DNA of 64,000 nt from an uncultured Clostridia bacterium. Its GTDB lineage: Bacteria > Bacillota > Clostridia > TANB77 > CAG-508. The stretch covers positions 329,198-393,197 of the forward strand of contig CAOSLI010000001.1 of NCBI GenBank assembly GCA_948524275.1. The letters run 5' to 3'. Below, piece by piece: positions 7,581-52,031 of the stretch. Positions within the stretch are counted from its first letter, which is position 1; each line of letters opens with the position of its first letter. The notes beneath the pieces were generated by a model. The model was not told the origin of the DNA. It saw nothing but the letters and a program-made list of their open reading frames with translations, and ran no database searches. The position numbers and the translations under genes were made by a program.

Positions 7581-7599
7581 ATTTATAGGAGGTTTTAGC

Positions 7600-9203: not shown

Positions 9204-9279
9204 TGGAGCCTATAACGGGAATCAAACCCGTGACCTCATCCTTACCAAGGATGCACTCTATCGACTGAGCTATATAGGC
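9204..9279 (-). tRNA. tRNA-Thr (anticodon GGU)
   Basis: Reverse complement folds as a cloverleaf: acceptor GCCTATA/TATAGGC, D-stem GCTC/GAGT, anticodon stem CATCC/GGATG with loop TTGGTAA, T-stem ACGGG/CCCGT, 3' CCA encoded. Confidence 0.9.
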
Positions 9280-18799: not shown

Positions 18800-18805
18800 A
18801 AAATT

Positions 18806-19168: not shown

Positions 19169-19348
19169 ATTTTTTATTGATATCAGTATTTTAATATTAT
19201 GTAAAATGAATTATTTGGATAATAATCTATTACAAAAACAGAATAAGCAAGACTGAAAAGTCACATAATAAAATTAGTACAAATTAAAATGTACTAATTT
19301 TTCATGTGTATTTTTAATACAAAGTAAAATTATAAGGAGGGAATTAAA

Positions 19349-28370: not shown

Positions 28371-31300
28371 ATGAGAAAAAATAGCAAAGAAAAAGGTATA
28401 ACGTTAATTGCGTTAGTTGTTACAATTATAATATTATTGATATTAGCTGCAATAGGCTTAAGAGGAATTGATACTTTAGTCTTCAAGGCAAAAGATGCAA
28501 CTAACAGATGGAAAGCTGCAGAAGAAGATGAAGTAAATGAGCTAGATAAAATAGCAAGTATAATTGATGGTAATCCAGAGGACCCAATGCCACAAACACC
28601 TGATATACCAGGGATACCAGATGTATCACCTGACATAGATGGATTGCCTGAAACAAAACCATATACATATTTTCCACCAGACTATATACCAATTTATACA
28701 GTTGAACAATATAAAGACATTGCATCTGAAAAGTCTAGTTATGTGATAAACGATTTATCAGGTACATATGTAGGAACATATACAATGGCGACAAATGCCA
28801 CATATGTATTTATGAATAATATAGACTTTGCAAGTGCAGGAAATGTACCAACAATAAAAAATTTTAACGGAACACTAGAGGGAAACGGATGTACAATAAG
28901 TAACATCTCAATAGATACTACTGGCTTAGAAAATGACTATACACGTATTGCTGGTGGAGACCCAAAATATCCAAGACCAGCAGGAATGTTTGAATGCGTA
29001 ACAGATGCAACAATAAGAAATTATGCAGTAGTAAATGCTAATATAAAATCTAAAGAGAGTGCAGCCGCAATCACTGCTCAATGTAATAATGCAACAATAA
29101 CAAATTGCTATGTAAAAGATTCTACTATAGATGGAATGAATTCTGCAGGAATTGTAGGTTATATAGGACCAAGAGGAGTAATAATAAGTAAATGTAAAAC
29201 CATTTCAACGAATATGCCTGGAACATCTGCAACAGCTGGAATTGCATCAACTTCATATGGAGACATAACGATAAATGATTGTAACGTAACAAAAAGTTCT
29301 ACAACTAATAGCATGAAACTAAATTCAGGAATTTTGTATTATACAGCAAATGATAAAACTACTACTATTAATAATTGTAATGTTCAAGATATTGAACTAA
29401 AAGATAATGATTCAGCTGGTATATTAGCTGTAGCAAATGGAAATGTCACAATTGATAAATGTAATACTAAAAAGTTATCTGGTTCAGGAGCATTATTATT
29501 AGGATATGTGGGAAATAATGGAGAAAGTGTATCTGTAACTAATTGTTCAAGCCAATCATCAGAGATGACAAAATCTGATGGAATGATACGTGAAATTTAC
29601 CTGAAAGGTAGTAGCTATGAAACTAGTGTAAATGTAGAAAATTGTTCAATGAAAGATATAAAGGCTACTGGAACCACATATAGTGCAAGTTTTGGATTGA
29701 TAGGCGAATGCCAAAATGTAAAAGATTTAAAAATATCAAAATGTTCTGCAGTGGGAATTGAGTTTACTAATGGAGATTCAGTTGCTGGAATATTGGGGCA
29801 TGTTTACTCAAACCTTAAAAATTTAGAAGTATCAGATTGTCATGTAGATAATATAAAAATTAATACTGCAAAAAATGCGGCAGGAATAGTAGCAGCATTT
29901 CAAGGAGAAAATATTACAGTTACAGAATGTAGCTCAAATAATCTTACAGTAGAATCGATACGTTCTATGACTGGTGGAATTGTTGCAATGTCAGAAAATA
30001 AACCACTTACTGTAAAGAATTGTACAGTTGCAAACTTTGATGCTAGCAAAGGTGAAGCTAGTGAATTACAAAAAGTGGGTGGTGCTATAGGCTTTTCGGG
30101 AACTGGAAACAATAATGCTGTAATAGAAAATGTAAAAGTATATAATAGTAAATTAGGCACTGGAGTTGGAATAGTTAATCAACTTGCTATTGGTGGAATA
30201 TGTGGTATGTCAACTGCAAAAGAAATAAATAATTGTTATGTAAAAGACGTTGAAATAAATGGAAAAAATTGTGAAGCAGTAGGTGGATTAATTGGAATTT
30301 CGCAGGTAGAAATGTCTATGACAAAATGTGCTGTTAATAATTGCAAAGTTGTATGTAACGAATCTGGAAAAGAATCAAAACAAGTGGGGGGAATTTTAGG
30401 ACAAGAATATACGAGAGCGACAATTAAAGATGCTATAGTAAATAACTTTAGCACTGAATTTGATACTACATCAGGTAAGTGTGAATTTATTGGTGGAGTA
30501 GTTGGTCTAGGAGGAGCATATGGCGGATCAATTACAATTGATAATGTAAATGTAAATCATTCAAAATTAAAAAGTGGTGGAAGAACTGGCGGTATGATAG
30601 GATATTCTCCTAATGCTAATGTTGCAAATAGTAAAGTTTATGAAACGTGGCTATATATGCATTGTAATGATAATAATATGAGAGCTGTTGGAGGAATTGT
30701 TGGATATGCAAGTACATCTAATATAGATAATGCAATTGTAGACCATGTAGGAATAGAAAGCCATGTACGTGTAGGTGGAATAGTAGGATTTGGAGATAAC
30801 ATAAATATAAGTAATAGTAAAGTTGATATGACAGGTATAAAAGTAACAGCTACAGCTAGATCTACATATGCAGGAGGAATTGCAGCATATGCACCATTTA
30901 ATTGTAAAATAGAATCTTGCAGTCTTTATGGAACAGAAATAAGATTAACAGGTGATGGACAAGAAGCATCTCTTGGAGGAATTGTAGGGCATGGAAATAA
31001 CTCATCAAATTCAAATTCACTTATTACAAAATGTAATTTAGATAGTTGTAAATTTGAAGGAACAAGTGGAGTCGGAGGAATAGCAGGAGTAGCAGTTCCA
31101 AACATAATAGATTGTCATACTAAAAACACTTACGTAGAAGGAACAATAGGTAATATTGGTGGTATATTAGGATATGGTGGTGCTACAAGCACAATAAATA
31201 GCACAACAGGAGAAGAAACAAAAAATCGTAAAGCTGTTAATATAACTAACTGTAGCATTGTAGATGGATTTTTAAGTGGACCAAACACTGGAAGTATAAT

Positions 31301-31388
31301 AGGAAAGAATTCACATATGGCTAGTACACCAGATGTTACAGAAGACGTTATAGAAGGATGTACATATCAATTTAAAGAAACTGAATAA
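28371..31388 (+). CDS. GLUG-motif repeat protein (1005 aa) with type IV pilin-like N-terminal segment
   Basis: N-terminus MRKNSKEKG-ITLIALVVTIIILLILAAIG resembles a class III (prepilin) signal but with Ala at +5 instead of Glu. There is a Pro-rich linker, then more than 15 GLUG-like repeats (AGIVGYIG, VGGAIGFSG, VGGLIGIS, VGGIVGYAS, LGGIVGHGN, VGGIAGVA ...). Confidence 0.7.
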   Translation: MRKNSKEKGITLIALVVTIIILLILAAIGLRGIDTLVFKAKDATNRWKAAEEDEVNELDKIASIIDGNPEDPMPQTPDIPGIPDVSPDIDGLPETKPYTYFPPDYIPIYTVEQYKDIASEKSSYVINDLSGTYVGTYTMATNATYVFMNNIDFASAGNVPTIKNFNGTLEGNGCTISNISIDTTGLENDYTRIAGGDPKYPRPAGMFECVTDATIRNYAVVNANIKSKESAAAITAQCNNATITNCYVKDSTIDGMNSAGIVGYIGPRGVIISKCKTISTNMPGTSATAGIASTSYGDITINDCNVTKSSTTNSMKLNSGILYYTANDKTTTINNCNVQDIELKDNDSAGILAVANGNVTIDKCNTKKLSGSGALLLGYVGNNGESVSVTNCSSQSSEMTKSDGMIREIYLKGSSYETSVNVENCSMKDIKATGTTYSASFGLIGECQNVKDLKISKCSAVGIEFTNGDSVAGILGHVYSNLKNLEVSDCHVDNIKINTAKNAAGIVAAFQGENITVTECSSNNLTVESIRSMTGGIVAMSENKPLTVKNCTVANFDASKGEASELQKVGGAIGFSGTGNNNAVIENVKVYNSKLGTGVGIVNQLAIGGICGMSTAKEINNCYVKDVEINGKNCEAVGGLIGISQVEMSMTKCAVNNCKVVCNESGKESKQVGGILGQEYTRATIKDAIVNNFSTEFDTTSGKCEFIGGVVGLGGAYGGSITIDNVNVNHSKLKSGGRTGGMIGYSPNANVANSKVYETWLYMHCNDNNMRAVGGIVGYASTSNIDNAIVDHVGIESHVRVGGIVGFGDNINISNSKVDMTGIKVTATARSTYAGGIAAYAPFNCKIESCSLYGTEIRLTGDGQEASLGGIVGHGNNSSNSNSLITKCNLDSCKFEGTSGVGGIAGVAVPNIIDCHTKNTYVEGTIGNIGGILGYGGATSTINSTTGEETKNRKAVNITNCSIVDGFLSGPNTGSIIGKNSHMASTPDVTEDVIEGCTYQFKETE

Positions 31389-31407
31389 GAAAATATAGGA
31401 TGTAAAA

Positions 31408-32982
31408 ATGAAGGAATATATAAAGCCAATAATTAATTTAACTCTAATATCTTCGCTTATATATATAATATGGAGAGTTATGATTTCCATCCCTTTAGAT
31501 AGGGGATGGAAATCCCTAATTTTCTCTATTATAATTGTAAGCTTAGAGATATTAGATTTTTTTGAATTCTGCATTTTCTATGTGAATTCATTAAAAGGTA
31601 CTAAAAGACATATAATAGACAAAAAAATAAAAGAATATCCTGATGTAGATGTAGTTGTCGTGACACTGAATGAAGACATCAAATTACTTGAAAGAACATT
31701 AAAGGCATGCAACGCTATTTCATATCCCAATAAAGAAAAATTACATATATATGTATCAGATGATGGAAAAAGAGAAGAAGTAAAGATATTAGCTGAAAGT
31801 CTAAATATAAACTATATAACTAGAGAAAATAACATAAATGCAAAGGCAGGAAATTATAACAATCTACTAAATACAATAAAATCACCATATATATTAACCC
31901 TAGATGCAGATATGGCACCTAAAGAAGGCATATTGCTAGATTTAATTCCGCATATAGCAAGGGATAAAGATGTAGGATTTGTTCAAACTCCTCAAGGATT
32001 TGAAAATGGTGATATATATCAATATAGATATGGAATAGATGGATATGTACCAAATGACCAATCATTTTTCTATCATACCTTACAACCATTAAAAAATAAC
32101 ATAAATGCTGTAGTATATTGCGGAACTAATGCAATAATACGAAGAGAAGCATTAGATAAAATAGGAGGATTTGCAGAAGGTGTATTAACTGAAGACATTG
32201 CAACAGGTATGTTAATTCAAAATGCAGGATATAAAGGAATATACATAGACAAGGTAGAAGCAGTAGGATATCAAGAAAACGATTTGAAAAGTTTTATTAA
32301 GCAAAGAACTAGATGGGCTAGAGGATGTATACAAACAAGTAAAAAGGTCAATCTATTAAAAATGAAAGGTCTAAATCTAAAGCAAAAATTAGAATACTTT
32401 TCTTGTTTTTCATATTGGCTGTTTGGAATAAAAAGACTAATATATCTAATAGCACCTTTATTATACAATGCATTTGATGTTATCTTAATAAATACTAGTA
32501 TGATAATATTTACAATAATGTGGCTGCCACAATACGTATTAAAAAGATTTGTTTTAGATAAGGTACTCAATAATGAAAGGTCATCTACTTGGAACAAAAT
32601 ATATGAAATAATATTAACACCAATTTTAAGTGTTCAAGTATTCCTAGAACTAATAGGTATTAGAAAGAAAAAATTTGAAGTATCAAGTAAGAAAAATAAG
32701 GGAAATAAAATTTCTAAAGAGCAAATTTTAATGACCTTGGGACATATATTCTTTATAATCATAAACCTCATTGCTTTAGGAATGAGTGTACTAAAGATGA
32801 ATAATACATTTTCAGATATATTCTCACTAATATGGAGTATGTCGAACTTAATGTATCTATTTATGGCTATTTTATTTGATTTATCAAACAAAAAGAACGA
32901 AGCAAAAGATTGCAGTGAAATATTTAAATATAATAAATGGACAATAATAAAAATGCTTTGGAAAGGGGATAAAAATAATTGA
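31408..32982 (+). CDS. Processive family-2 glycosyltransferase (cellulose synthase BcsA-like catalytic subunit; no PilZ domain seen)
   Basis: N-terminal TM helices; conserved D (YVSDDG), DxD (LTLDADM), TED (LTEDIATG), QxxRW (QRTRWARG); C-terminal TM bundle. Confidence 0.75.
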   Translation: MKEYIKPIINLTLISSLIYIIWRVMISIPLDRGWKSLIFSIIIVSLEILDFFEFCIFYVNSLKGTKRHIIDKKIKEYPDVDVVVVTLNEDIKLLERTLKACNAISYPNKEKLHIYVSDDGKREEVKILAESLNINYITRENNINAKAGNYNNLLNTIKSPYILTLDADMAPKEGILLDLIPHIARDKDVGFVQTPQGFENGDIYQYRYGIDGYVPNDQSFFYHTLQPLKNNINAVVYCGTNAIIRREALDKIGGFAEGVLTEDIATGMLIQNAGYKGIYIDKVEAVGYQENDLKSFIKQRTRWARGCIQTSKKVNLLKMKGLNLKQKLEYFSCFSYWLFGIKRLIYLIAPLLYNAFDVILINTSMIIFTIMWLPQYVLKRFVLDKVLNNERSSTWNKIYEIILTPILSVQVFLELIGIRKKKFEVSSKKNKGNKISKEQILMTLGHIFFIIINLIALGMSVLKMNNTFSDIFSLIWSMSNLMYLFMAILFDLSNKKNEAKDCSEIFKYNKWTIIKMLWKGDKNN

Positions 32983-33959
32983 AAAAATTATTAGTTTTGT
33001 TTTTACTCATCATTGCCATAACAGTATCGATTCCTATATTTTATAGAATAAACAACAATAGAGTTATATATAATGGATTTTTGAAAGTCGATGGTACTAA
33101 ATTAAAAAATAGATTTGGTCAGGAAATTCAGTTAAAAGGCGTAAGCTCACATGGTGTGCAATGGGAGTACACAGACATAATTACAAAGGAAAATCTAAAA
33201 TATCTAAGAGATGAATGGGATATGAATGTTTTTAGAATTGCTATGTATACTGAAGAAGGTGGATATATAAATGACAAGGAGACCAATAAACAAAAAGTAA
33301 TTAGCATAATAGACATCTGTATAGATTTAGATATATATGTTGTAGTAGATTGGCATAATCTTAAAGATGGAGATCCTAACAAAAATAAAGAGGCAGCAAG
33401 GGAATTTTTTGAATTTATATCAGAAAAATATAAAAATGTACCGAATGTTATTTATGAGATTTGTAATGAACCTAATGGAGTATTATGGACAGAACATATA
33501 AAGCCATATGCAAATGAAATTATAGAAATCATAAGAAAAAATACACCAAAGTCACTTATTATAGTGGGCACACCAGATTATTCTAAAGATATTGTATCTG
33601 TAGTGAATTCTAAATTAGAATATAATAATATTTTATATGCATTTCATTTTTATGCAAGTACACACACTGAAATATATAGACAATTTATAAAATACGCGTT
33701 AGAAAATGATGTACCAGTATTTGTTTCAGAATGGGGAACAGGAAATTATACAGGAGATGGTGGATTTGACTATGTAAATTCAGAAGAATGGATGAAATTT
33801 TTAGATGAAAATAATATAAGTTGGATAAATTGGTCATTTTCTTATAAAGATGAAAGCACAGCAATTGTAAAACCTGACATAAAAGATAATATTAATATCA
33901 TTGAAGAAAACTTAACTGACTCAGGAAAATACATTAAAAATAAAATGAAAAAACCTTGA
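32979..33959 (+). CDS. Glycoside hydrolase family 5 endoglucanase (cellulase-like), membrane/secreted
   Basis: N-terminal signal/TM; GVSSHGVQWE, IVDWHNL, catalytic NEP (ICNEPNG) and nucleophile SEWG motifs typical of GH5; 4-nt overlap with GT2. Confidence 0.75.
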   Translation: MKKLLVLFLLIIAITVSIPIFYRINNNRVIYNGFLKVDGTKLKNRFGQEIQLKGVSSHGVQWEYTDIITKENLKYLRDEWDMNVFRIAMYTEEGGYINDKETNKQKVISIIDICIDLDIYVVVDWHNLKDGDPNKNKEAAREFFEFISEKYKNVPNVIYEICNEPNGVLWTEHIKPYANEIIEIIRKNTPKSLIIVGTPDYSKDIVSVVNSKLEYNNILYAFHFYASTHTEIYRQFIKYALENDVPVFVSEWGTGNYTGDGGFDYVNSEEWMKFLDENNISWINWSFSYKDESTAIVKPDIKDNINIIEENLTDSGKYIKNKMKKP

Positions 33960-34075: not shown

Positions 34076-34342
34076 ATGATGACAAAGGAAAGAAAAGAAG
34101 AAATCATCAAAACTTATAGAAGAGATGATAAGGACACTGGTTCACCAGAAGTTCAAGTAGCTCTTTTGACAGAAAGAATTAATGAGCTTACAGAACATTT
34201 AAAATCTAACCCAAATGATAATCACTCAAGAAGAGGATTATACAAAATGGTTGGTAGCAGAAGAAACTTACTTAATTACTTAGCTAAAAAAGATGTTCAA
34301 AGATACAGAGACATAGTAGCAAAATTAGGATTAAGAAAATAA
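34076..34342 (+). CDS. rpsO: 30S ribosomal protein S15
   Basis: 88 aa; [23 protein letters not shown]...[20 protein letters not shown]. Confidence 0.95.
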
Positions 34343-34352
34343 TTTTTTATTT

Positions 34353-34408
34353 AAAGCAACGCCTGTATTACATCGTAGTGCAGTCGTTGCTTTAAGTTTC
34401 TTTTAAGA
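34353..34408 (+). terminator. Terminator/attenuator hairpin downstream of rpsO
   Basis: AAAGCAACG ... CGTTGCTTT 9-bp stem with long loop, followed by T-rich tract. Confidence 0.5.
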
Positions 34409-34546: not shown

Positions 34547-36661
34547 ATGTTTAAAATTTATGAAACAGAATTAGCAGGAAGAAAACTTACAATAGAGACT
34601 GGAAAGTTTGCAAAACAAGCAAATGGAAGTGTTACAGTAAGATATGGTGATACAGTTGTAATGACAAATGTTACAGCTTCAAAAGAACCTAAAGATGGTG
34701 TTGACTTTTTTCCACTATCAGTAGATTATGAAGAAAAATTATACTCTGTAGGAAAGATACCAGGAAGTTTTAATAGAAGAGAAGGTAAGCCAGCAGATAA
34801 AGCAATTTTAGTATCAAGAGCAATTGATAGACCAATAAGACCATTATTTCCACATGATTTTAGAAATGATGTATGTGTTGTAAATACTGTTCTTTCAGTT
34901 GATGAAGATTGTAGCCCAGAAGTGTGTGCAAATATTGGTACATCAGCAGCACTTTCAATATCAGATATTCCTTGGGGTGGACCAACCTCTGCTATGCAAG
35001 TAGGATATATAGATAACAAAATAGTATTAAATCCTAGTGAAGAAGAAAGCAAAAAAAGTAGATTACATTTAACAGTTGCTGGAACTGAGGAAAAAATCAC
35101 AATGATTGAAGCAGGAGCTGACGAAATACCAAATGATATAATGCTTAATGCCATTAAAGAAGCACATGTAGAAATTAAGAAAATATGTAAATTTATATCA
35201 GAGATGAAGTCTGAAATAGGCAAGCCTAAGTTTGAATATAAATCTTTCTCAGTTGATCCAGATTTCTATAAAGCAGTTACAGAAAAATTTGAATCAGCTA
35301 TGAGTGATGCTGTTAGAAATACAGATAAAGAAATTAGAAATGATAATGTAGATAAAGTTGCAGAAGAAATTAAAAATCTAGCAATTGAGATGTATGGAGA
35401 AGATGCAGAAGAGGAGCACGCATTTGATATAGCCACAGCAGTCCATGACTTAGAAAAGCATTGCGTTAGAAATATGATTTTAACTGAAAGAAAACGTCCA
35501 GATGGAAGAGGAATAGATGAAATAAGACCACTTTATGGAGAAGTTGGACTTCTTCCAAGAGTACATGGTAGTGCACTTTTCTCAAGAGGACAAACTCAAG
35601 TTCTATCAATAGCAACACTTGGAACTAAAGCAGACGAGCAATTATTAGATGGATTAGACAGTGAGACATCAAAGAGATATATGCATCAATATAATTTCCC
35701 ATCATACAGTGTTGGAGAGGCAAGACCTTCAAGAGGACCTGGAAGAAGAGAAGTAGGACATGGAGCATTAGCCGAAAGAGCATTAGTTCCAGTAATTCCT
35801 ACTGAAGAAGAATTTCCTTATACAATAAGAGTTGTATCAGAAGTTCTTGAATCAAACGGTTCAACATCACAAGCAAGTATTTGTGGAAGCACATTAGCAT
35901 TAATGGATGCAGGTGTTCCTATAAAGAAACCAGTAGCAGGAATTTCAACAGGACTTATTACAAATCCAGATGACCCAGAAAACTATATTGTTCTTACTGA
36001 TATTCAAGATATAGAAGATTTCTTTGGAGACATGGACTTTAAAGTTGGTGGAACTAAAGACGGAATAACAGCTATCCAAGTAGATATAAAGATTGATGGA
36101 CTAACATATGATATAATTGAACAAGCTTTTGAGAGAACTGCAAAAGCAAGAGCATATATTATTGATGACATTATTTTAAAAGCTATTCCAGCTCCAAGAG
36201 AAGAATTGTCTAAGTATGCACCAAAGATAATTAACATAGTTATTCCACAAGAGAAGATTAAAGATGTAATTGGTTCAGGTGGAAAAACTATTAATAAAAT
36301 AATTGATGAAACTGGAGCGAAACTTGATATAGAAGAAGATGGACGAGTATTCATATATGCACAAGATATTGAAAATGCCAAGAAAGCATTAAAAATGGTA
36401 GAAGATATAACAAGAGACATAGAAGTCGGAAGTATTGTAGGTGGTGTTGTTACTAAAATAGCAGCATTTGGAGCATTTGTTAAAATAGGTATGAATAAAG
36501 AAGGACTTCTTCATATATCTAAAATTTCAAGCAAAAGAGTAGAAAAAGTAGAAGATGTATTAAGCGTAGGAGACGAAGTAACAGTAAAAGTTATAGATAT
36601 AGACGGTCAAGGAAAAATAGCACTTAGCATGAAAGATTTAGAAGTAGGAGAAAATAAATAA
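34547..36661 (+). CDS. pnp: Polyribonucleotide nucleotidyltransferase (PNPase)
   Basis: 704 aa; two RNase PH domains, KH and S1 domains (GSIVGGVVTKIAAFGAFVKIG). Confidence 0.95.
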   Translation: MFKIYETELAGRKLTIETGKFAKQANGSVTVRYGDTVVMTNVTASKEPKDGVDFFPLSVDYEEKLYSVGKIPGSFNRREGKPADKAILVSRAIDRPIRPLFPHDFRNDVCVVNTVLSVDEDCSPEVCANIGTSAALSISDIPWGGPTSAMQVGYIDNKIVLNPSEEESKKSRLHLTVAGTEEKITMIEAGADEIPNDIMLNAIKEAHVEIKKICKFISEMKSEIGKPKFEYKSFSVDPDFYKAVTEKFESAMSDAVRNTDKEIRNDNVDKVAEEIKNLAIEMYGEDAEEEHAFDIATAVHDLEKHCVRNMILTERKRPDGRGIDEIRPLYGEVGLLPRVHGSALFSRGQTQVLSIATLGTKADEQLLDGLDSETSKRYMHQYNFPSYSVGEARPSRGPGRREVGHGALAERALVPVIPTEEEFPYTIRVVSEVLESNGSTSQASICGSTLALMDAGVPIKKPVAGISTGLITNPDDPENYIVLTDIQDIEDFFGDMDFKVGGTKDGITAIQVDIKIDGLTYDIIEQAFERTAKARAYIIDDIILKAIPAPREELSKYAPKIINIVIPQEKIKDVIGSGGKTINKIIDETGAKLDIEEDGRVFIYAQDIENAKKALKMVEDITRDIEVGSIVGGVVTKIAAFGAFVKIGMNKEGLLHISKISSKRVEKVEDVLSVGDEVTVKVIDIDGQGKIALSMKDLEVGENK

Positions 36662-36662: not shown

Positions 36663-37940
36663 ATGCAGTATTTATATATGGTGCAACAAGCATTAGTATG
36701 GATAATAACAATATATTGGATATATCAATTAATCATTAGTTTATGTTCATTTATTACATTAAAGGATAAGCCAAAAGTTACAGATAAAAAACACAAATTC
36801 GTGGCTATTGTGCCAGCTCACAATGAAGAAAATGTTGTGGGCAATCTTATAGCGAGCTTAAAAAACCAAGATTATCCAAAAGAATTGTATGATATCTATG
36901 TTATTGCAGATAATTGCACAGATGATACTGAGAAAGTTGCAAAAAATGCAGGAGCAAAGGTATTTAAAAGAATTGAAGAAGACAAAGCAAAGCAGACAAA
37001 AGGCTTTGCTCTTCAACTATTTTTAAATAAATTATTATCAAATCCCAAGATGGATTATGATGCTTTTTGTGTATTTGATGCGGATAATATAGTAGATGAA
37101 CATTTTATTTCTGCAATGAATGAACACCTTTGCCAAGGTGAGGATGTAGTTCAAGGATATAGGGATATAAAGAATCCAAGTGATAGTTGGATTTCAGCTG
37201 GATATGCGATTTTTTATTGGACAATGAATAGATTTTATCATCTAGCAAGATATAATGCAGGTTTATCACCACTTATAAATGGTACTGGTTTTATGGTAAA
37301 GTTAGATGCAATAAGAGATACTGGATGGGACACAAATACGTTAACTGAAGATATAGAATTTTCATTAAAACGAATCATTCAAGGACATAAATTAGGTTGG
37401 GCTACTGATGCAATTTGCTATGATGAGCAACCAATAAAATTTAAGCCATCGTGGTCTCAAAGATCTAGATGGACAATAGGACATCTTCAATGTATGCAAG
37501 AATACACAGCTGATTTAGCTAAATCTGCTGTCAAAAATAAGACACTTATGAATTTTGATGGACTGTTATATATTGTAGGAACAGCACCAATGTTTGTCAT
37601 AACAATTCTTCTATTAGTATCAAATGCAGTAATTTATCTTGGAAAGGAAATGACAACATCTGCATTTGTTATTAACATATTAAGATATATTATACCAACA
37701 TTTTTGCTTCCAATATTTACAGCAGTTATGATAATGATAATTGACAAAAAGCCTATAAAAAAGATGTGGAAAGGACTTTTAATGTATCCAGCTTTCTTAG
37801 GTTCATGGCTTTTAATTAACTTTAAGTGTTTATTTAAAAGAGATACAACATGGGAAAAAATTGAGCATAATCGTGATGTAAAGATTGATGAGGTACATGA
37901 AAAAGTAAAAACGAAGTCTAAAGAAAAAGCTATGAAATAA
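36663..37940 (+). CDS. Processive family-2 glycosyltransferase (IcaA/PgaC/cellulose-synthase-like), integral membrane
   Basis: Start ATG 2 nt after pnp stop; motifs DNCTDDT, FDADN, TEDIEFS (TED), QRSRWTIG (QxxRW); N-terminal and C-terminal TM helices. Confidence 0.7.
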   Translation: MQYLYMVQQALVWIITIYWIYQLIISLCSFITLKDKPKVTDKKHKFVAIVPAHNEENVVGNLIASLKNQDYPKELYDIYVIADNCTDDTEKVAKNAGAKVFKRIEEDKAKQTKGFALQLFLNKLLSNPKMDYDAFCVFDADNIVDEHFISAMNEHLCQGEDVVQGYRDIKNPSDSWISAGYAIFYWTMNRFYHLARYNAGLSPLINGTGFMVKLDAIRDTGWDTNTLTEDIEFSLKRIIQGHKLGWATDAICYDEQPIKFKPSWSQRSRWTIGHLQCMQEYTADLAKSAVKNKTLMNFDGLLYIVGTAPMFVITILLLVSNAVIYLGKEMTTSAFVINILRYIIPTFLLPIFTAVMIMIIDKKPIKKMWKGLLMYPAFLGSWLLINFKCLFKRDTTWEKIEHNRDVKIDEVHEKVKTKSKEKAMK

Positions 37941-37997
37941 AATATCTAAAATTACCTTAAACTTAAATAAAAGGTAGGATGTAAAAGGAGATTATTA

Positions 37998-39530
37998 ATG
38001 CAAAAGGAATGTAAGGCTATGATTAAAACTAAAAGCATAAGAAATATAAATTCTAAATATATATTTTTTTCAATCATTATTTTAGGTGCAATATTTAGCA
38101 TACTACAATGTTTTCATATAAATCTTTGGTTTGACGAAAGTTATTCTATAGCAATTGCAAATCATCCTTTTAATGAATTATGGACAATTGGTAGTCATGA
38201 TGTACACCCAGTACTTTATTACATAATCATAAAACTTATTTTAACGATAACAAATGGAAGTATAATTTGTGTAAGAATATTTTCAGCTGTTCCACTAATT
38301 ATAATGGGAATATTAGGATATACACATATTAGAAAAGACTTTGGAGAAAAAGCTGGAATGTTATTTACTCTTTTTTCGCTATTTTTTCCACCATGCATAG
38401 TTTATGCATCAGAAATAAGAATGTACACTTGGGCAATGTTATTTGCTACAATAATGGTTATATATGCTTATAGAATATTTAAAGGTAGTGGAAAAATAAA
38501 TAAAGATTGGATAATCTTTTCTATATTTAGTTTAGCTTGTGCATATACACATTATTATGCATTAGCAATTGCATTTGTTATAAATATAGCACTATTTATA
38601 TACTTCTTAAGAAAATCTATAAAAAATAGAAGCAAAAACGGAGGTTTTTACGTCGAAAATTTAAAAAGAGGTATTATATCAGCTGTTCTTCAAATTATAG
38701 GTTATATGCCTTGGCTTGTAGTTCTTATGGGGCAAGTATCCTCAACTGATAGCTTTTGGATTGGGGTGCCAGATTTTTTAGACATATTAGAATTTCAGTT
38801 TACAGGAAATCTTGGAGATTTATTACATATACCAGCATTTTTATCATGGCCATTTACAATAATATTTGTAATATATATAATCTATATGTTAAAAAAATAT
38901 TGGAAAAAAGAAGAGATTAAACCTGCTAAAATGTTATTATCATTATATGGAGCAGTAGTTGTTTTTATTGGAATAATATCAATTGTTAAGCTACCAATAC
39001 TATTTGCAAGATATTTTTTAACAATGACAGGAATGCTAATTTTAATGATTGTTATATTATTATCTGTTGATACAAATATAAGAAGAGTAATTGCAATATG
39101 TACTTTAACTGTAATAATGTCATTAGTTGCTAATATAAATGTAATTAATGATAATTATGACCAGAGTAATAGCAAGCCAATGGAATTTTTGACATCTGAC
39201 CTTCAAGAGGAAGATATATTTGTTACAGATAATGTAGGTAGTGGATTTGTACTAGTTACAGAGAAACAAATTCCGTATGATAGAGTTTACTTTTGGGACA
39301 GAAGTCATTGGAATGTACAAGAAGCATACAAAGCATATGGAAAAACAATTTGGGATATAAATGACTTAAAAGATTATAAAGGCAGGATATGGGTTATTGG
39401 TTCAGGTAATTTTGGCTTAGCTGAAGCAGTTAATACTGAATTAGAAGATACGACAATTTTAAAGCAAGAGTATTTTAAGACTAAATATAAGTCATATGAA
39501 TATGCTATGACACTAATTGAGAAGAATTAG
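37998..39530 (+). CDS. GT-C fold membrane glycosyltransferase (family 39/83, PMT/ArnT-like)
   Basis: About 12 predicted TM helices; first periplasmic loop carries WFDESYS (the DE motif of PMT/ArnT-type GT-C enzymes). Confidence 0.6.
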   Translation: MQKECKAMIKTKSIRNINSKYIFFSIIILGAIFSILQCFHINLWFDESYSIAIANHPFNELWTIGSHDVHPVLYYIIIKLILTITNGSIICVRIFSAVPLIIMGILGYTHIRKDFGEKAGMLFTLFSLFFPPCIVYASEIRMYTWAMLFATIMVIYAYRIFKGSGKINKDWIIFSIFSLACAYTHYYALAIAFVINIALFIYFLRKSIKNRSKNGGFYVENLKRGIISAVLQIIGYMPWLVVLMGQVSSTDSFWIGVPDFLDILEFQFTGNLGDLLHIPAFLSWPFTIIFVIYIIYMLKKYWKKEEIKPAKMLLSLYGAVVVFIGIISIVKLPILFARYFLTMTGMLILMIVILLSVDTNIRRVIAICTLTVIMSLVANINVINDNYDQSNSKPMEFLTSDLQEEDIFVTDNVGSGFVLVTEKQIPYDRVYFWDRSHWNVQEAYKAYGKTIWDINDLKDYKGRIWVIGSGNFGLAEAVNTELEDTTILKQEYFKTKYKSYEYAMTLIEKN

Positions 39531-39533
39531 GAG

Positions 39534-40415
39534 ATGAACATGATAATAGATAACATGATTTTAAATAAAGAAAATCAGATAAAAGATATGAAGGTTTATG
39601 CTTTTGTTGGACCTTCAGGAACAGGAAAGAGTTATAGAGCTCAGATGGTTGCTGGAGAATACAATATACAGTATATAATTGATGATGGAATATTAGTTAA
39701 AGATAATGAAATAGTTGCAGGAAGTTCTGCAAAAAAGGCACCGACTAAAATTGAAACTGTTAAAAGAGCTTTATTTATAAATGAAGAACAAAATAGAGAA
39801 ATGACTAAAGCAATTAGAAAATATAAGCCAGAGTCAATACTTATCTTAGGAACATCAGATAATATGGTAAATGAAATCGCTAAGAATTTAAAATTACCAG
39901 ACATAATAAAGATAGTATATATAACAGACGTTGCAACAGATGAAGAAATTGAAAATGCGAAAAGGATGAGAACTGTTGAGGGAAAACATGTTATACCAGT
40001 TCCAACCTTTGAGATAAAGAAGGATTTTTCAGGCTATCTTTTAGACCCACTTCAAATATTTAAAACAAAAGGACAGGGGAATAAGCCATATATTTCAGAA
40101 AAATCAATTATAAGACCAACTTTTAGCTATATTGGCAATTTTACAATATCCGATACTGTATTTAGACAAATCATAGAGTATTTAGCATCTAAGAACGACT
40201 CAATAACAGAAGTATTAAGAGTTAGGATAACAAAAGGAGAAGATGCTCCATTAATATACGTTGAAGTTGAGATTACTTATGGAATAAATATAATGTCAGA
40301 GCTTAAAGATTTTAAGGAAAAATGCATTAAAGAAATAGAAAGACTCACAGCAATGAATGTTAAAAATATTAGAATTATTGCTAAGAAAATTAAATTACCT
40401 AATATTAGTTTATAG
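39534..40415 (+). CDS. Fusion protein: HprK-like P-loop NTPase domain + Asp23/Gls24-family domain
   Basis: AFVGPSGTGKSYRAQMVAGEYNIQYIIDDGILV (Walker A then hydrophobic-DD, as in HprK/P C-domain). C-terminal about 110 aa TVFRQIIEYLASKNDSITEV...EVEITYGINIMSELKDFKEKCIKEIERLTAM resembles Asp23/DUF322. Confidence 0.4.
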   Translation: MNMIIDNMILNKENQIKDMKVYAFVGPSGTGKSYRAQMVAGEYNIQYIIDDGILVKDNEIVAGSSAKKAPTKIETVKRALFINEEQNREMTKAIRKYKPESILILGTSDNMVNEIAKNLKLPDIIKIVYITDVATDEEIENAKRMRTVEGKHVIPVPTFEIKKDFSGYLLDPLQIFKTKGQGNKPYISEKSIIRPTFSYIGNFTISDTVFRQIIEYLASKNDSITEVLRVRITKGEDAPLIYVEVEITYGINIMSELKDFKEKCIKEIERLTAMNVKNIRIIAKKIKLPNISL

Positions 40416-40478: not shown

Positions 40479-41792
40479 ATGTCATTTATTGTAGCAATAG
40501 ATGGACCAGCAGGAACTGGCAAAGGAACTGTTACATCAAATTTAGCAAAACGATTAAATTTAGTATATTTAGATACAGGTGCAATGTATAGAGCAGTCAC
40601 ATTAAAATTTATAAGGGAGAGTATAGAATTAGATAACCTAGAAGATTTATCACCAGAACAAAAGGAGAGAGTAACCAATTTACTAAAAAATATAAAGTTA
40701 GACATGAAAGATAAAAAGATATATTTAGACGGAGAAGATGTAAGCGAAGAAATAAGGCGTGATCCAGTAAACTCTTATGTTTCTCAAGTATCTCACATTG
40801 AAGAAGTTAGAAAATCTATGGTAGATTTACAAAGAAAGATATCAGAAGGAAAAAATGTAATCCTTGAGGGAAGGGATATTGGCACTAATGTATTTCCTAA
40901 TGCAAATGTAAAAATCTATTTAGATGCTTCTGTTGATGAAAGAGTTAAGAGAAGGCTAAAACAAAATGCAGAAAAGGGAATTAAATCGTCTGAAGAAGAA
41001 GTTAGAAAAAATATAGTATTTAGAGACAACAATGATAAAAATGCGAGCATAGCTCCATTAAGACAAGCAGAAGATGCAATATATGTTGATACATCAGACT
41101 TAAGCATAAATGAAGTTCAAAATAAACTTTATAAAATAGTTAAAAATGCAAAGAGGGATAGCAAGTGGATTGAAAAGGGATACATAATGACAAAAGAAAC
41201 TACTTGGAAGAAATTTGAGAGATGGTTTGTAAAAGGTGTTTTGGCTAGTACATATCACATTTGTTTAAGAGTTGAAAAGAAAGGAATGGATAATTTACCT
41301 AAAGATGAGGGATTTATAATTTGTGCTAATCATTTAAATTACTTAGATGCAGCAGGTATTGTTTTATTAAATAAAAGAAAAGTTAGATTTGTTGGAAAAG
41401 ACAATTTATATAGATTTCCTATACTATCTTGGCTTGGACACATGTTTGATATTATACCTATAAAAAGAGGTAAAAATGACATGGCATCAATTAAGATGTG
41501 TTTAAAAGCTCTTAAAAATAATGAGATTATAGGTATTTTCCCAGAGGGTACTAGAAAGGGATTAGAAAAGCAAGAAAAGATAAAGAATGGAGCAGTATTC
41601 TTAGCAGCAAAGGCAAATGCAAAAATTGTACCAGTTGGAATTAAGGGGAACTTTAAACTTTTTTCAAAAGTTAGATTTAACTATGGAAAACCAATTGATA
41701 TAAATAGTTATAAAAATAATGATGATCCAGATTGGCTAGATAAAGCAAGCGATGCTATAATGGATGAAATTGTAAGATTAACAGAAGAATAA
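40479..41792 (+). CDS. cmk: In-frame fusion of cytidylate kinase (Cmk) and 1-acyl-sn-glycerol-3-phosphate acyltransferase (PlsC)
   Basis: Residues 1 to about 222 are Cmk (IAIDGPAGTGKGT, LDTGAMYRAV, EGRDIGTNVFP). Residues 237-437 are a LPLAT acyltransferase (CANHLNYLD = HX4D, FPEGTRK). One continuous 437-codon ORF, with the internal Met 237 codon at 41187. Confidence 0.75.
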   Translation: MSFIVAIDGPAGTGKGTVTSNLAKRLNLVYLDTGAMYRAVTLKFIRESIELDNLEDLSPEQKERVTNLLKNIKLDMKDKKIYLDGEDVSEEIRRDPVNSYVSQVSHIEEVRKSMVDLQRKISEGKNVILEGRDIGTNVFPNANVKIYLDASVDERVKRRLKQNAEKGIKSSEEEVRKNIVFRDNNDKNASIAPLRQAEDAIYVDTSDLSINEVQNKLYKIVKNAKRDSKWIEKGYIMTKETTWKKFERWFVKGVLASTYHICLRVEKKGMDNLPKDEGFIICANHLNYLDAAGIVLLNKRKVRFVGKDNLYRFPILSWLGHMFDIIPIKRGKNDMASIKMCLKALKNNEIIGIFPEGTRKGLEKQEKIKNGAVFLAAKANAKIVPVGIKGNFKLFSKVRFNYGKPIDINSYKNNDDPDWLDKASDAIMDEIVRLTEE

Positions 41793-41922
41793 GAAAAATT
41801 ATGTTGACAAAATACATATAAATAATGTATAATATAAAAGTTAATTACTGGTATGGAAATTTATAGAAAGATAATATTATAAATTCTATTACCAAATAAC
41901 TAATTAAAAGGAATGATAGACA

Positions 41923-42792
41923 ATGAGTGAAGAAAATGTATCTTTTGAACAATTATTAAATGATTCAATGAAAGAAAGTAAAAAATTAGAAAAGATTACT
42001 GAAGGAACAGTAATAAATGTAAATGATAAAGGGGAAGTATTTGTTGACCTTAATTATAAGGCTGATGGAATAATACCTAAGTCAGAATATTCTTTTGATG
42101 TAAATGCAGACCCAAAGAAAGAGTTAAAAGCCGGAGACAAGATAACAGTCCAAGTTCTTAAACTTAACGATGGTGAAGGAAATGTACTTTTATCATATAA
42201 GAAGATAAGAAATGCTGAAAATAAAAAGAAACAAGAAGAAAATATGACGAAATTTTGGGAAAAAGCAGAAGTAGGAAATAAATATGAAGGTACTGTTTCA
42301 AGCATATGTTCATATGGGGCATTTATTGATATTGATGGTGTGCAAGGTCTTTTACATATCTCAGAGATTTCTTGGAATAGAGATGCGAAAGTAGGAGATA
42401 TTTTAAAAGAAGGTCAAAAAATCAATATTACAATTAAGGAACTTGATAAAGAAAATAAGAGGATGAAACTTTCATATGATGAAAAAGGAGAAGATCCTTG
42501 GAATACCTTAGAGGTTAAAGTAGGAGATATTGTGAAAGTTACTATAAAGAAAATGATGCCTTTTGGAGCATTTGCTGAGATCAAAGAAGGTATAGAAGGT
42601 TTAATACATATATCTCAAATTTCAACTGCAAGAATTACGAAACCAGAAGATGTTTTGTCTGTCGGAGAAGAAGTAAATGCTAAAATTATAGATATGGATA
42701 TAGAAAACAAAAAAATAGAATTATCAATTAGAGAATTAGAAGGAACTTCTGACGAATATAGTAGTCAAGATAATGATAAGATTGAACAATAA
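41923..42792 (+). CDS. S1 RNA-binding domain protein (short ribosomal protein S1 homologue, 3 S1 repeats)
   Basis: 289 aa; repeated G..V.G.V....FGAF(I/A).I..G(V/I).GL.HISE(I/Q)S S1 motifs. Confidence 0.7.
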   Translation: MSEENVSFEQLLNDSMKESKKLEKITEGTVINVNDKGEVFVDLNYKADGIIPKSEYSFDVNADPKKELKAGDKITVQVLKLNDGEGNVLLSYKKIRNAENKKKQEENMTKFWEKAEVGNKYEGTVSSICSYGAFIDIDGVQGLLHISEISWNRDAKVGDILKEGQKINITIKELDKENKRMKLSYDEKGEDPWNTLEVKVGDIVKVTIKKMMPFGAFAEIKEGIEGLIHISQISTARITKPEDVLSVGEEVNAKIIDMDIENKKIELSIRELEGTSDEYSSQDNDKIEQ

Positions 42793-42862: not shown

Positions 42863-44689
42863 ATGAACAACCAAAACATAAGAAATATAGCGATAATTGC
42901 GCACGTTGACCATGGAAAGACAACATTAGTTGATGCTCTTTTACATCAAAGTCACGTATTTAGAGAAAATGAACAAGTAGCAGAAAGAGTTATGGACTCT
43001 AATGACCTAGAAAGAGAAAGAGGAATAACAATACTTTCTAAAAATACATCAGTTATGTACAATGATGTAAAAATTAATATAGTAGATACTCCAGGACATG
43101 CTGATTTCGAAGGAGAAGTTGAAAGAGTATTAAAAACTGTTGATGGTGTTTTACTTGTTGTAGATGCGTTTGACGGACCAATGCCACAAACAAGAGAAGT
43201 TTTAAAAAAGGCCTTAGCGCTAGACTTACAACCAATAGTTGTAATAAATAAAATAGATAGACCAGGAGCAGCTCCACTTAAAGCAGTTGATAAGGTATTA
43301 GAATTATTCATAGACTTAGGGGCAAATGATGAACAACTTGATTTTCCAGTTATATATGCATCAGCCAAAAATGGTATTGCCAAAATGACTCTTGAAGAAG
43401 AAAGTGATAACATTACATGTATATTTGATACAATTATAAAGGAAATTGATCCACCAAAATGTGAAATAGATGGTACAATGCAACTTTTAGTATCTAATAT
43501 AAATTATGATGATTATTTAGGAAGAATTGCAGTTGGCAGAGTTGAAAGAGGAACAATAAAAGCTGGACAATCTGTAAGTATTTGTAAAGAAAATGGAAAG
43601 GTTATCCAAGGCAAACTTGCTAAATTATTTACTTATGAAGGTTTAAAAAGAGTTGAAGCAGAAGAAATTAAGGCAGGAGATATAGTTGCTGTATCAGGAA
43701 TACCTGATATCAATATTGGAGAGACAATATGTGATTTTGATCATCCAGAAAAGATAGAATTTGTTAATATTGATGAGCCAACAGTTTCTATGACATTTAG
43801 TGTAAATGATGGACCATTAGCAGGAAAAGAAGGTAAATTTGTTACATCAAGACATATTAGGGATAGACTATTTAAAGAACTTGAAAGAAATGTTTCACTA
43901 AGAGTAAAAGAAACAGACAAGGCTGAAAGTTTTGAAGTATGTGGACGTGGAGAACTTCATATATCTGTACTAATTGAAACAATGAGAAGAGAAGGTTTTG
44001 AACTTTTAGTATCTCGTCCAAAAGTTATATTTAAAGATATTGATGGTGTAAAATGTGAACCTATTGAAACACTTAGTGTTAATGTTCCAGATGATTCAGT
44101 TGGAAATGTTATTGAAAAACTTGGTAGAAGAAAAGCAGAAATGGTTAACATGGAACCAGCAGAACCAGGTCATACAAAAATAGAATTTACAATTCCAGCA
44201 AGAGGTTTAATTGGATATAGAACAGAATTCCTTACAGATACAAAAGGTGAAGGAAGAATGTCAAGCGTATTTAAAGATTATGAGCCATATAAAGGTGAAA
44301 TACAAGCAAGGACAAGGGGAGTATTAACGGCATTTGAACCAGGTACATCAATTACTTATGGATTATATAATGCACAATTAAGAGGAGAACTTTTAATTGG
44401 TGCAGGTGTAGAAGTATATGAGGGAATGATAGTTGGTATAAACTCAAGAAATGAAGATATATCAATAAATGTATGTAAAGAAAAACATTTAACAAATACT
44501 AGAGCCTCTGGTTCAGATGATGCACTTCGTTTAGTTCCACCACTTCAAATGTCATTAGAACAATCAATTGAATTTATAGCTGATGATGAACTTGTTGAAG
44601 TTACACCTACAAATATTAGATTAAGAAAGAAAATATTAGATACAAAAACAAGGGAAAGAGAAGCAAGAAGAGCACAATCTGCAGACTAG
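42863..44689 (+). CDS. typA: Translational GTPase TypA/BipA
   Basis: NIAIIAHVDHGKTTLVDALL, DTPGHADF, NKIDR; 608 aa with EF-G-like domain order. Confidence 0.9.
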   Translation: MNNQNIRNIAIIAHVDHGKTTLVDALLHQSHVFRENEQVAERVMDSNDLERERGITILSKNTSVMYNDVKINIVDTPGHADFEGEVERVLKTVDGVLLVVDAFDGPMPQTREVLKKALALDLQPIVVINKIDRPGAAPLKAVDKVLELFIDLGANDEQLDFPVIYASAKNGIAKMTLEEESDNITCIFDTIIKEIDPPKCEIDGTMQLLVSNINYDDYLGRIAVGRVERGTIKAGQSVSICKENGKVIQGKLAKLFTYEGLKRVEAEEIKAGDIVAVSGIPDINIGETICDFDHPEKIEFVNIDEPTVSMTFSVNDGPLAGKEGKFVTSRHIRDRLFKELERNVSLRVKETDKAESFEVCGRGELHISVLIETMRREGFELLVSRPKVIFKDIDGVKCEPIETLSVNVPDDSVGNVIEKLGRRKAEMVNMEPAEPGHTKIEFTIPARGLIGYRTEFLTDTKGEGRMSSVFKDYEPYKGEIQARTRGVLTAFEPGTSITYGLYNAQLRGELLIGAGVEVYEGMIVGINSRNEDISINVCKEKHLTNTRASGSDDALRLVPPLQMSLEQSIEFIADDELVEVTPTNIRLRKKILDTKTREREARRAQSAD

Positions 44690-44816
44690 TTTTTTATAGT
44701 CTATTATTACATCTGACAATTAGGTTAAAATTAAATGCATTATTTTGGAAAAAACTTGACAGTCAAAAAAAAAAATGTTATTCTATATATAGTTAATAAA
44801 TTTCAATGATGTAAAA

Positions 44817-44850
44817 AGACTAGGAAATGTCACTTCCTAGTCTTTCACCT
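44817..44850. terminator. Hairpin terminator shared by typA (+) and small peptide gene (-)
   Basis: A5-GACTAGGAA-loop-TTCCTAGTC; near-identical stem sequence to the terminator at 18533-18566. Confidence 0.65.
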
Positions 44851-49643: not shown

Positions 49644-50108
49644 ATGAAAAAAGTTATGTTTATATCAAGTAATGGTGGACATTTAAATGAACTAATGCAG
49701 CTGAATTTTGAAGATTTTGATTATTCGATTGTTACTGAGAAAACCCAATCTGACAAAGATTTAAAAGATAAATATCAAGGTAAAGTTTACTACTTAGCTT
49801 ATGGAACGAGAAGGACACCAATAACATATTTCTTTATATTACTTTTTAACTTTTTCAAAAGTTTATACTTATTTATAAAGTTAAGACCAAATGTTGTTGT
49901 TACAACAGGAACCCATACAGCAGTTCCTATGTGCTATATTGCTAAACTTTTTAGGGCAAAAGTAATATGGATAGAGACTTTTGCAAATAGGACAAGCAAA
50001 ACATTAGCTGGAAGATTAGTTTATCCAATTGCTGACACTTTTGTAGTTCAATGGGAGGAAATGCTAAAGTTGTATCCAAAGGCTAAGTATTGGGGTTGGA
50101 TATATTAA
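49644..50108 (+). CDS. Alg14-like/Cps14F-like glycosyltransferase membrane subunit
   Basis: 154 aa; FISSNGGHLNELMQL, TTGTHTAVPMC, ETFANRTS, matching the PssD/Cps14F/Alg14 family. Confidence 0.65.
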   Translation: MKKVMFISSNGGHLNELMQLNFEDFDYSIVTEKTQSDKDLKDKYQGKVYYLAYGTRRTPITYFFILLFNFFKSLYLFIKLRPNVVVTTGTHTAVPMCYIAKLFRAKVIWIETFANRTSKTLAGRLVYPIADTFVVQWEEMLKLYPKAKYWGWIY

Positions 50109-50129
50109 TAAAAAAGGAGACGAAATAAA

Positions 50130-52027: not shown

Positions 52028-52031
52028 CAAT

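Follow-up and report, generated by a model that had tools for sequence, protein, structure and literature searches.

The CsbB/GtcA/YfhO and GtrB/GtrA/GtrC systems work by a two-step scheme, in which a family-2 glycosyltransferase (GT2) charges polyprenyl phosphate at the cytoplasmic face of the membrane, the sugar is flipped and a transferase of the GT-C fold class transfers it outside. In the transmembrane glycosylation systems of Firmicutes, PMT_2-type enzymes act in this last step, moving sugar from a polyprenyl-phosphate donor onto a surface acceptor (PMC8035078). In the Asp23 family, YqhY/RfaA controls acetyl-CoA carboxylase and fatty-acid synthesis (PMC5437119; bioRxiv 10.1101/2024.02.19.580884), and it binds AccC and ClpE in controlling the latter (PMC5437119). 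We analyzed three consecutive genes that recall these systems in a stretch of 64,000 nucleotides from an uncultured Clostridia bacterium (assembly GCA_948524275.1, contig CAOSLI010000001.1), called the window in what follows. They encode a membrane GT2 of the synthase type (GT2b), a PMT_2-type transferase (GT-C) and a protein joining a P-loop head to an Asp23 domain (P3), and they lie between pnp, the gene of polynucleotide phosphorylase (PNPase), and a gene fusing cytidylate kinase to 1-acylglycerol-3-phosphate acyltransferase (cmk-plsC). A first-pass annotation of this DNA had read all three as pointing to an uncharacterised envelope glycan or glycosylation pathway. We consider it probable, with clear reservations, that the region consists instead of three functionally separate genes sharing one housekeeping operon. 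Of these, GT2b would be an orphan synthase and GT-C an accessory enzyme of decoration, while P3 would be a conserved protein of unknown role, unrelated to either.

This reading is carried by the comparison of 80 species-level loci (L006-L085), made with tblastn and with hidden Markov models (HMMs) built from alignments over a flank of 8 kb per genome. P3 is directly followed by cmk in 75 of the 78 loci with enough flank; cmk is fused to plsC in 27 of these 75, and in the others it matches about half of the query. Among the 65 loci with at least 4.5 kb of upstream sequence, GT2b is found 5' of P3 in 36, GT-C in 15, both in 13 and neither of them in 27. L026 and L059 have GT-C but no GT2b. When GT2b is absent, unrelated genes occupy the space 5' of P3 (transglutaminase-like, RlmN, RecD2, PGI, deaminase). 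In about half of the species that carry GT2b here, GT-C is not next to it, and in about 15 species GT2b abuts P3 with no gene between, so that GT2b, P3 and cmk are contiguous. As for pnp, it directly precedes GT2b in 20 of the 30 loci that contain GT2b and extend at least 7 kb upstream. The tight junction between the two genes had been put forward as translational coupling. It exists in the window, where a single base separates stop and start codons, but it is not conserved, since the gaps in relatives range from 7 to 413 nucleotides (nt). 

The degree of conservation differs along the locus, the median identity of related species to the window proteins being 79% for typA, 72% for pnp, 67% for both GT2b and P3, 48% for cmk and 46% for GT-C. 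The latter is thus fast-evolving, and it is absent or broken in most related species. Altogether, these data show that GT2b is a clade-conserved gene lodged after pnp and that GT-C is an optional insert between GT2b and P3. They also show that P3 is an independent housekeeping-type gene, since it keeps cmk, has varied upstream genes and, in distant lineages, stands in contexts free of glycosyltransferases.

The family of P3 is indeed broad. We found more than 8,000 close matches and 973 clusters at 50% identity, 277 of them with E < 1e-30, and a search with an 11-sequence alignment located the family in at least 595 GTDB species. Its carriers belong to the Clostridia, Negativicutes and Synergistota, with Megasphaera elsdenii, Schwartzia, Lentihominibacter and Peptostreptococcales among those named. 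Databases call the relatives 'Asp23/Gls24 family envelope stress response protein', 'YloU' or 'hypothetical' only. We found neither literature on a P-loop/Asp23 fusion nor a solved structure or curated model for the family, and the initial remark that P3 matches no family that can be named holds true, no curated family name having been found. In eleven distant lineages, no glycosyltransferase was seen among the neighbours of P3. These are pnp directly upstream (L092), rplJ-rplL (L093), SfsA with DnaD/DnaI (L094), DnaD/DnaI alone (L096), RNase Y and YmdB (L088), a PHP-domain protein (L086), Rex (L087 and L097), MazEF (L089), and a BcrAD-type ATPase with UDG (L095). None of them recurs consistently, pnp being seen once and DnaD/DnaI, Rex and an aminotransferase twice each, and no AmaP, YloV or Acc neighbour appeared in any context read. 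In L092 (positions 2882-5825, GCA_948562205.1), pnp and the P3 homologue are separated by a gap of 10 nt; P0246, which represents the cluster of this homologue, shares 49% identity with P3 of the window. It may therefore be that pnp and P3 were neighbours before the glycosyltransferases were inserted. We conclude that P3 is not part of glycosylation.

P3 is soluble, with no membrane span by hydropathy, and consists of three parts. Its kinase-like P-loop head (residues 19-150, nt 39588-39983) contains a Walker A motif, GPSGTGKS (nt 39609-39632), and an invariant DD (nt 39681-39686). The linker (residues 146-201) is conserved and predicted to be disordered, and carries GKHVIPVPT and RPTFSY. The Asp23 domain covers residues from about 201 to 290 (nt 40134-40403). 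The window protein scores 24.1 bits against Asp23 (PF03780) for a cut-off of 28, and 76 of 81 family members match this model, with a best E of 2.8e-14. The alignment of the 81 sequences has 18 invariant columns, which include, in the head, G26, G29 and G31-K32-S33 (Walker A), D50-D51, G63, K67, T107 and M111 and, in the linker, R146, then H152 and P155 in GKHVIPVPT, and P195 and G201 around RPTFSYxG. The fusion of a P-loop domain to an Asp23 domain, as proposed earlier, is thus confirmed. On the other hand, the head shows no specific likeness to HprK: Hpr_kinase_C matches weakly in just three of the 81 members (best E 0.034), and no HprK structure is present among the sequence or fold matches of P3 in the PDB. 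The Pfam matches of the head among the 81 members are generic P-loop ones only (ABC_tran, AAA, AAA_33, AAA_17, IPT), and sequence and profile searches of the PDB gave no relative of P3 beyond the generic P-loop. A duplication of the neighbouring Cmk is also ruled out as the origin of the head, since only 31 columns around the P-loop align. Longer homologues have N-terminal extensions of low complexity without any Pfam domain.

The AlphaFold2 model of P3, with a predicted local distance difference test (pLDDT) of 85.6, displays a confident alpha/beta head (19-150), a low-confidence segment (159-199), which holds invariant residues, and a confident alpha/beta C-terminal domain (207-287). Foldseek had been proposed as a check on this protein. 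Run against the PDB, it returned weak domain-level matches only, with E of about 1e-3 to 1e-4, and no known family. The head resembles gluconate kinase (E about 1e-3), the tail resembles the ferredoxin-like C-terminal domains of MamM/YiiP, and Era is the one match, a poor one, that covers two domains. With its Walker A motif, a DD that follows strand 2 and a GTS that follows strand 3, the head has a likeness to shikimate and gluconate kinases, which Foldseek supports weakly. Most likely, P3 would be a soluble nucleotide-dependent housekeeping enzyme or regulator, with ATP bound by the kinase-type head and the Asp23 domain serving assembly or docking. A more speculative view makes it an ATP-dependent kinase or switch that signals its state by way of this oligomerisation or docking domain, and the invariant linker GKHVIPVPT...RPTFSY would then be a partner-binding or active-site element. 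Its position before cmk(-plsC) and the role of Asp23 proteins in lipid synthesis point weakly to membrane-lipid or nucleotide homeostasis. On the more speculative view, candidate targets are membrane-lipid or nucleotide supply (Cmk/PlsC) and an RNA or DNA housekeeping process.

GT2b matches the Pfam families Glyco_trans_2_3 (2e-23), Glyco_tranf_2_3 (1e-21) and Glycos_transf_2 (3e-15). Its motifs are D83 (nt 36909-36911), D139-A-D141 (37077-37085), T228-E-D230 (37344-37352) and Q266-R-S-R-W270 (37458-37472). The D, DxD, TED and QRxRW motifs are unchanged across 37 homologues, in which a C-terminal W397-x-K399 (nt 37851-37859) is likewise invariant. Hydropathy predicts one N-terminal span (9-33), followed by a lysine-rich segment, and three to four C-terminal spans (about 298-392), with a GT-A domain in between that is predicted to be cytoplasmic. 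Against NCBIfam, GT2b scores 74.6 bits with PgaC_IcaA (cut-off 422), aligned end to end (residues 3-378 on profile positions 6-371 of 407), 138 bits with EpsU (cut-off 700) and 34.4 bits with CelA (cut-off 699). With every equivalog cut-off missed by far, GT2b is, as judged by sequence, the orthologue of no characterised synthase. Its AlphaFold2 model (pLDDT 75, predicted template modelling score 0.77) has as top Foldseek match in the PDB the Xenopus hyaluronan synthase 1, XlHAS1 (E 4.7e-15, TMq 0.66, 437 columns). The Chlorella virus hyaluronan synthase CvHAS, BcsA (TMq 0.56-0.60) and the 'minimal cellulose-synthase-like' PcManGT come next, with soluble GT2 enzymes further down the ranking, and neither GtrB nor DPMS is represented among the best 50 matches.

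The profile of GT2b aligns by hhalign with E. coli PgaC over the whole catalytic domain, including TED and QRxRW, with a probability of 96.6%. With the undecaprenyl-phosphate transferase ArnC the probability is 68.6%, and the alignment covers the N-terminal half of the GT-A domain only. This partial alignment and the HAS/BcsA-like fold speak against a polyprenyl-phosphate transferase of the GtrB/CsbB/ArnC type. A simple two-step pathway from GT2 to GT-C is therefore not suggested by the sequences. GT2b thus has the architecture of the processive membrane synthases HAS, BcsA, PgaC and NodC. The earlier description of an IcaA/PgaC/cellulose-synthase-like enzyme is upheld by its motifs as well as by these comparisons. 

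We propose that GT2b would act as a self-sufficient, membrane-integrated synthase whose cytoplasmic GT-A domain would take a UDP-sugar. As suggested by the motifs and the fold, the TED aspartate would act as base and the QRxRW tryptophan would hold the growing acceptor end. The product, presumably a beta-linked oligo- or polysaccharide, possibly lipid-primed, would exit through the membrane helices of the enzyme itself; its sugars, and whether it is a polymer or a lipid, are matters of conjecture. GT2b is nearly as conserved as PNPase, and what it makes is therefore probably a core constituent of the envelope in these uncultured gut Clostridia. One could go further and assume that P3 represents a housekeeping family with a new function in anaerobic Bacillota and Synergistota and that, separately, GT2b makes an undescribed, clade-specific core envelope glycan or glycolipid. 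We put this forward as a tentative idea, which is rather doubtful at present.

For GT-C, the window protein falls just under the cut-off of PMT_2 (26.0 bits for 26.1), and 36 of its 37 homologues, 43-82% identical, match this family with a best E of 1.6e-11. The WFDESY motif (nt 38127-38144), in which W44, D46 and Y49 are invariant, comes directly after the first membrane span. The N-terminus of this span is positively charged, and the motif is therefore predicted to face outwards, as loop 1 does in other GT-C enzymes. D68-V-H-P71 (nt 38199-38210) and Y74-Y75 are also invariant. Hydropathy gives about 10-12 spans and then a soluble C-terminal tail of about 125 residues (about 386-510). The first-pass annotation was right on the fold class, the motif and the membrane spans of this protein. 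Its likeness to ArnT is ruled out at the sequence level, hhalign against E. coli ArnT giving a probability of 0.1%. Pfam PMT (PF02366) is matched by one of the 37 homologues, which indicates no relationship to the eukaryote-type PMT, and searching the PDB by sequence and by profile gave no relative. GT-C would be an accessory enzyme working outside the membrane, probably moving sugar from a polyprenyl-phosphate donor onto a surface acceptor, which could be the product of GT2b, a different polymer of the wall or a protein. That GT-C diverges fast and is often lost is in keeping with a surface decoration that varies.

Some loci contain altered versions of this gene. In L028, L029, L042 and L045, GT-C is found in two open reading frames (ORFs) or is partly matched (about 6000-8000 in each locus), which points to pseudogenes or to frameshifts in the assemblies. 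In L020 (6474-7973) and L032 (6392-7984), the place between GT2b and P3 is taken by a multi-span protein of about 500-530 amino acids (aa) without Pfam match. The L020 protein keeps the DVHPP..YY motif and is 24% identical to the window GT-C over 238 residues; that of L032 matches the GT-C HMM weakly (8e-11). Both may belong to a very divergent GT-C lineage.

Several points weigh against the separation of the three genes that we favour. A gene scored absent from the examined flanks may lie elsewhere in the genome. GT2b and P3 are adjacent or nearly so in 36 of 65 species, which we read as inherited synteny, although a functional link is possible. The P3-cmk link is confined to one clade and absent in distant lineages, so that the lipid or nucleotide reading of P3 is weak. 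As for GT2b, its model is of moderate confidence only, with membrane helices at pLDDT 60-80, the predicted fold cannot tell a polymer synthase from a glycolipid synthase, and no PgaD, PilZ, BcsB or deacetylase is encoded beside it. Finally, genes for a GT-A and a GT-C enzyme lying side by side are a recognised mark of two-step glycosylation in Firmicutes, the GT-C partner being of the PMT_2 type (PMC8035078). The pairing of GT2b with GT-C may for this reason be functional despite the unusual type of the GT2. One would then suppose that GT2b charges polyprenyl phosphate and that the sugar, flipped perhaps via the membrane domain of GT2b, is transferred outside by GT-C to a wall polymer, lipoteichoic acid or a protein. 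Besides this hallmark pairing, GT-C carries the acidic motif in loop 1 and needs a lipid-linked donor, for which no other candidate synthase, and none of the GtrB/CsbB type, was seen in the neighbourhood. In the Gtr systems, a conserved GtrB stands beside a serotype-specific GtrC, and the conserved GT2b beside a variable GT-C resembles this arrangement. However, GT2b possesses the motif set of synthases with QRxRW, an N-terminal span and a fold closest to HAS/BcsA, its likeness to ArnC stops at the N-terminal half of the GT-A domain, and about half of the species bearing it lack an adjoining GT-C. Moreover, no GtrA-type flippase was found in the neighbourhood. The operon holds no flippase of the GtrA or Wzx type, and about 10 kb further downstream a separate cluster includes a Wzx-like Polysacc_synt gene; known transmembrane systems often encode their flippase elsewhere (PMC8035078). 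We regard a two-step system at this locus as improbable.

A glycolipid product is a real alternative for GT2b, because exopolysaccharide partners are missing and its conservation is of housekeeping level. In its broadest form, this idea makes the locus a membrane-lipid operon, where GT2b would add sugar to diacylglycerol or another lipid, P3 would regulate lipid homeostasis via its Asp23 domain, and Cmk-PlsC would supply CDP for CTP and phosphatidic acid, the three forming a membrane-biogenesis unit. The cmk-plsC fusion, present here and in 27 of 75 relatives, the contiguity of GT2b, P3 and cmk in about 15 species, the control of fatty-acid synthesis by Asp23-family proteins (PMC5437119) and a GT2b without export or modification partners, yet unusually conserved for a polysaccharide enzyme, all agree with it. 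But no curated glycolipid-synthase model of NCBIfam matched GT2b, Glyco_transf_21 is not matched by it although another GT2 enzyme, GT2a, does match this family, its fold is closest to polymer synthases, and the contexts of P3 in distant lineages are not related to lipids. The GT2/GT21 enzymes that make glycosyl-diacylglycerol and glucosylceramide share the D, D, D and QxxRW residues with GT2b. Such an operon seems to us unlikely. Much less credible still is the joint pathway of all three genes, with P3 as its HprK-like kinase or regulator. The genes are contiguous and probably co-transcribed in the window, and GT2b is 5' of P3 in 36 of 65 related species. Nevertheless, P3 does without either glycosyltransferase in 27 of the same 65 and in all eleven distant lineages, so that synteny largely refutes this view, and the trace of Hpr_kinase_C in three of 81 members comes without any HprK structure among sequence or fold matches. 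What persists of the original proposal is that GT2b, alone or together with GT-C, may fairly be read as making an uncharacterised glycan of the envelope, because the pnp-GT2b arrangement is conserved in the clade; P3, which is directly followed by cmk in 75 of 78 loci, does not belong to this pathway. We thus retain three separate genes in one operon.

The genes of this operon are listed in Table 1.

Table 1. Genes from rpsO to typA in the window, with their positions.
Gene or product	Position	Strand	Basis or remark
rpsO	34076-34342	+	ORF list
pnp (polynucleotide phosphorylase, 704 aa)	34547-36661	+	Upstream housekeeping gene; ORF list
GT2b (family-2 glycosyltransferase, synthase type, 425 aa)	36663-37940	+	ORF, Pfam, NCBIfam
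GT-C (PMT_2 type, 510 aa)	37998-39530	+	ORF, Pfam matches of homologues
P3 (P-loop/Asp23 fusion)	39540-40415 (291 aa); longest ORF 39534-40415 (293 aa)	+	Start-site reading
cmk-plsC fusion (cytidylate kinase + 1-acylglycerol-3-phosphate acyltransferase, 437 aa)	40479-41792	+	Pfam, NCBIfam
Three-domain S1 protein	41923-42792	+	
typA	42863-44689	+	

The three ORFs described initially, of 425, 510 and 293 aa on the + strand, were recovered as such, and conservation shows that GT2b, GT-C and P3 are real genes. Each has a ribosome-binding site. AGGAG at 36646-36650, inside the 3' end of pnp, serves GT2b, whose ATG at 36663 comes one base after the pnp stop codon (TAA, 36659-36661), and GGAG at 37987-37990 stands 7 nt ahead of the ATG of GT-C. 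For P3, AGGAG at 39529-39533 overlaps the stop codon of GT-C, touches the ATG at 39534 and lies 6 nt 5' of the ATG at 39540. Gene callers also give a form of 291 aa. Because of this form and of the 6-nt spacing, ATG 39540 is likely the true start, and we corrected the start of P3 to it. The genes are closely spaced, with short gaps, and the terminator-like sites on the + strand lie only after rpsO (34363-34383, an attenuator) and after typA (44815-44845), none being found in between. Promoter-like sites are at chance level in number. A perfect sigma-70 consensus (TTGACA, 18 nt, TATAAT) lies at 41804-41833, in the gap after cmk-plsC and 5' of the S1-domain gene, and could serve as a promoter within the series. 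From this layout, a transcript running from pnp at least as far as cmk-plsC is plausible, and rpsO-pnp-GT2b-GT-C-P3-cmk/plsC is probably one compact, co-transcribed housekeeping operon. No riboswitch or other Rfam family was found near the GT2b, GT-C and P3 region.

The same locus is found, identical, in the metagenome-assembled genome GCA_948845805.1, and among the matches listed the closest species-level relatives are uncultured low-G+C gut Clostridia such as 'Clostridium sp. CAG:575' and 'Clostridium sp. 27_14'. The homologues of pnp have two RNase_PH domains followed by PNPase, KH and S1 domains. The window has pnp as one intact ORF, whereas L001 (5033-7122) and L002 (5000-7122), two further assemblies from this organism, have it divided into two ORFs (441/452 aa and 252 aa), likely owing to a frameshift or assembly error in those records.

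Other glycan-related genes are present in the window. 5' of rpsO, a set of three genes (28371-33959) encodes a 1005-aa protein with one N-terminal span and no Pfam match, a cellulose-synthase-like GT2 of 524 aa (Cellulose_synt, Glyco_transf_21) and a GH5 cellulase, the first 4 nt of which overlap the end of the GT2 gene. The set looks like a species-specific insertion, since the flanks of the loci from related species (L004-L085) yielded none of these genes. A 743-aa ORF without Pfam match (25773-28004) lies directly 5' of the 1005-aa protein. Downstream of the operon, the region 49644-53393 encodes split Alg14-like and Alg13-like proteins (Glyco_tran_28_C), a Wzx-type Polysacc_synt flippase and a protein of the phosphoglucomutase/phosphomannomutase family, and is followed by an MBOAT gene (DltB/AlgI-like, 58186-59577). 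Two RNA genes lie at 18805-19174 and 9207-9279, an RNase P RNA (class A, 280 bits) on the + strand and one tRNA on the - strand. The literature yielded nothing useful on glycosyltransferases of related uncultured Clostridia.

GT2b and GT-C are new members of well-known enzyme classes, and current knowledge is overturned neither by GT2b nor by P3. The orphan HAS/PgaC-like synthase could nevertheless define a surface glycan typical of the clade and relevant to the interaction with the host, the variable GT-C beside it being then a source of surface diversity. The most interesting element of the locus is P3, an uncharacterised architectural variant of the Asp23 family. It is conserved in its clade at the level of PNPase, databases label it just by its weak Asp23 tail, and it thus offers a concrete target for work on the conserved unknowns of gut anaerobes and on the role of Asp23 domains.

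A parallel can be drawn between GT2b and the synthases HAS, BcsA, PgaC, IcaA and NodC. It is of the same size class with its 425 aa, has one N-terminal and three to four C-terminal helices predicted around a cytoplasmic GT-A domain, keeps D, DxD, TED and QRxRW, and finds its best Foldseek matches in XlHAS1, CvHAS and BcsA. Unlike them, it lacks a PilZ domain as well as any PgaD, PgaB, BcsB or IcaD partner, it lies in a housekeeping operon, it scores far below the equivalog cut-offs, and its conservation, almost that of PNPase, is unusual for an exopolysaccharide enzyme. With the Firmicutes systems CsbB/GtcA/YfhO, GtlA/GtlB, YkcC/YkcB and CsdA-F (PMC8035078), the locus shares a GT-A-fold GT2 gene adjoining a multi-span PMT_2 GT-C, as well as the acidic motif in the first outer loop of the GT-C and its fast divergence between species. 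It differs from them by a GT2 that has QRxRW, an N-terminal span and a HAS/BcsA-like fold and is not of the CsbB/GtrB/ArnC type, by the lack of a GtrA-type flippase nearby, and by a GT-C that many species keeping GT2b can dispense with.

P3 has no counterpart at family level and no solved relative among the shikimate, gluconate and nucleoside monophosphate kinases, but its head resembles them in the Walker A motif GxSGTGKS, the strand ending in the invariant DD after the first helix and the later GTS strand, and it matches gluconate kinase (Foldseek) and AAA_33, AAA_17 and IPT (Pfam) weakly. Its C-terminal ~90 residues are those of the Asp23/Gls24 family (Asp23, YqhY/RfaA, YloU; PF03780). The classical members of this family are small, single-domain proteins, Asp23 itself being anchored by AmaP, whereas P3, which has no AmaP neighbour, adds to this domain a P-loop head of ~150 aa and a conserved linker.

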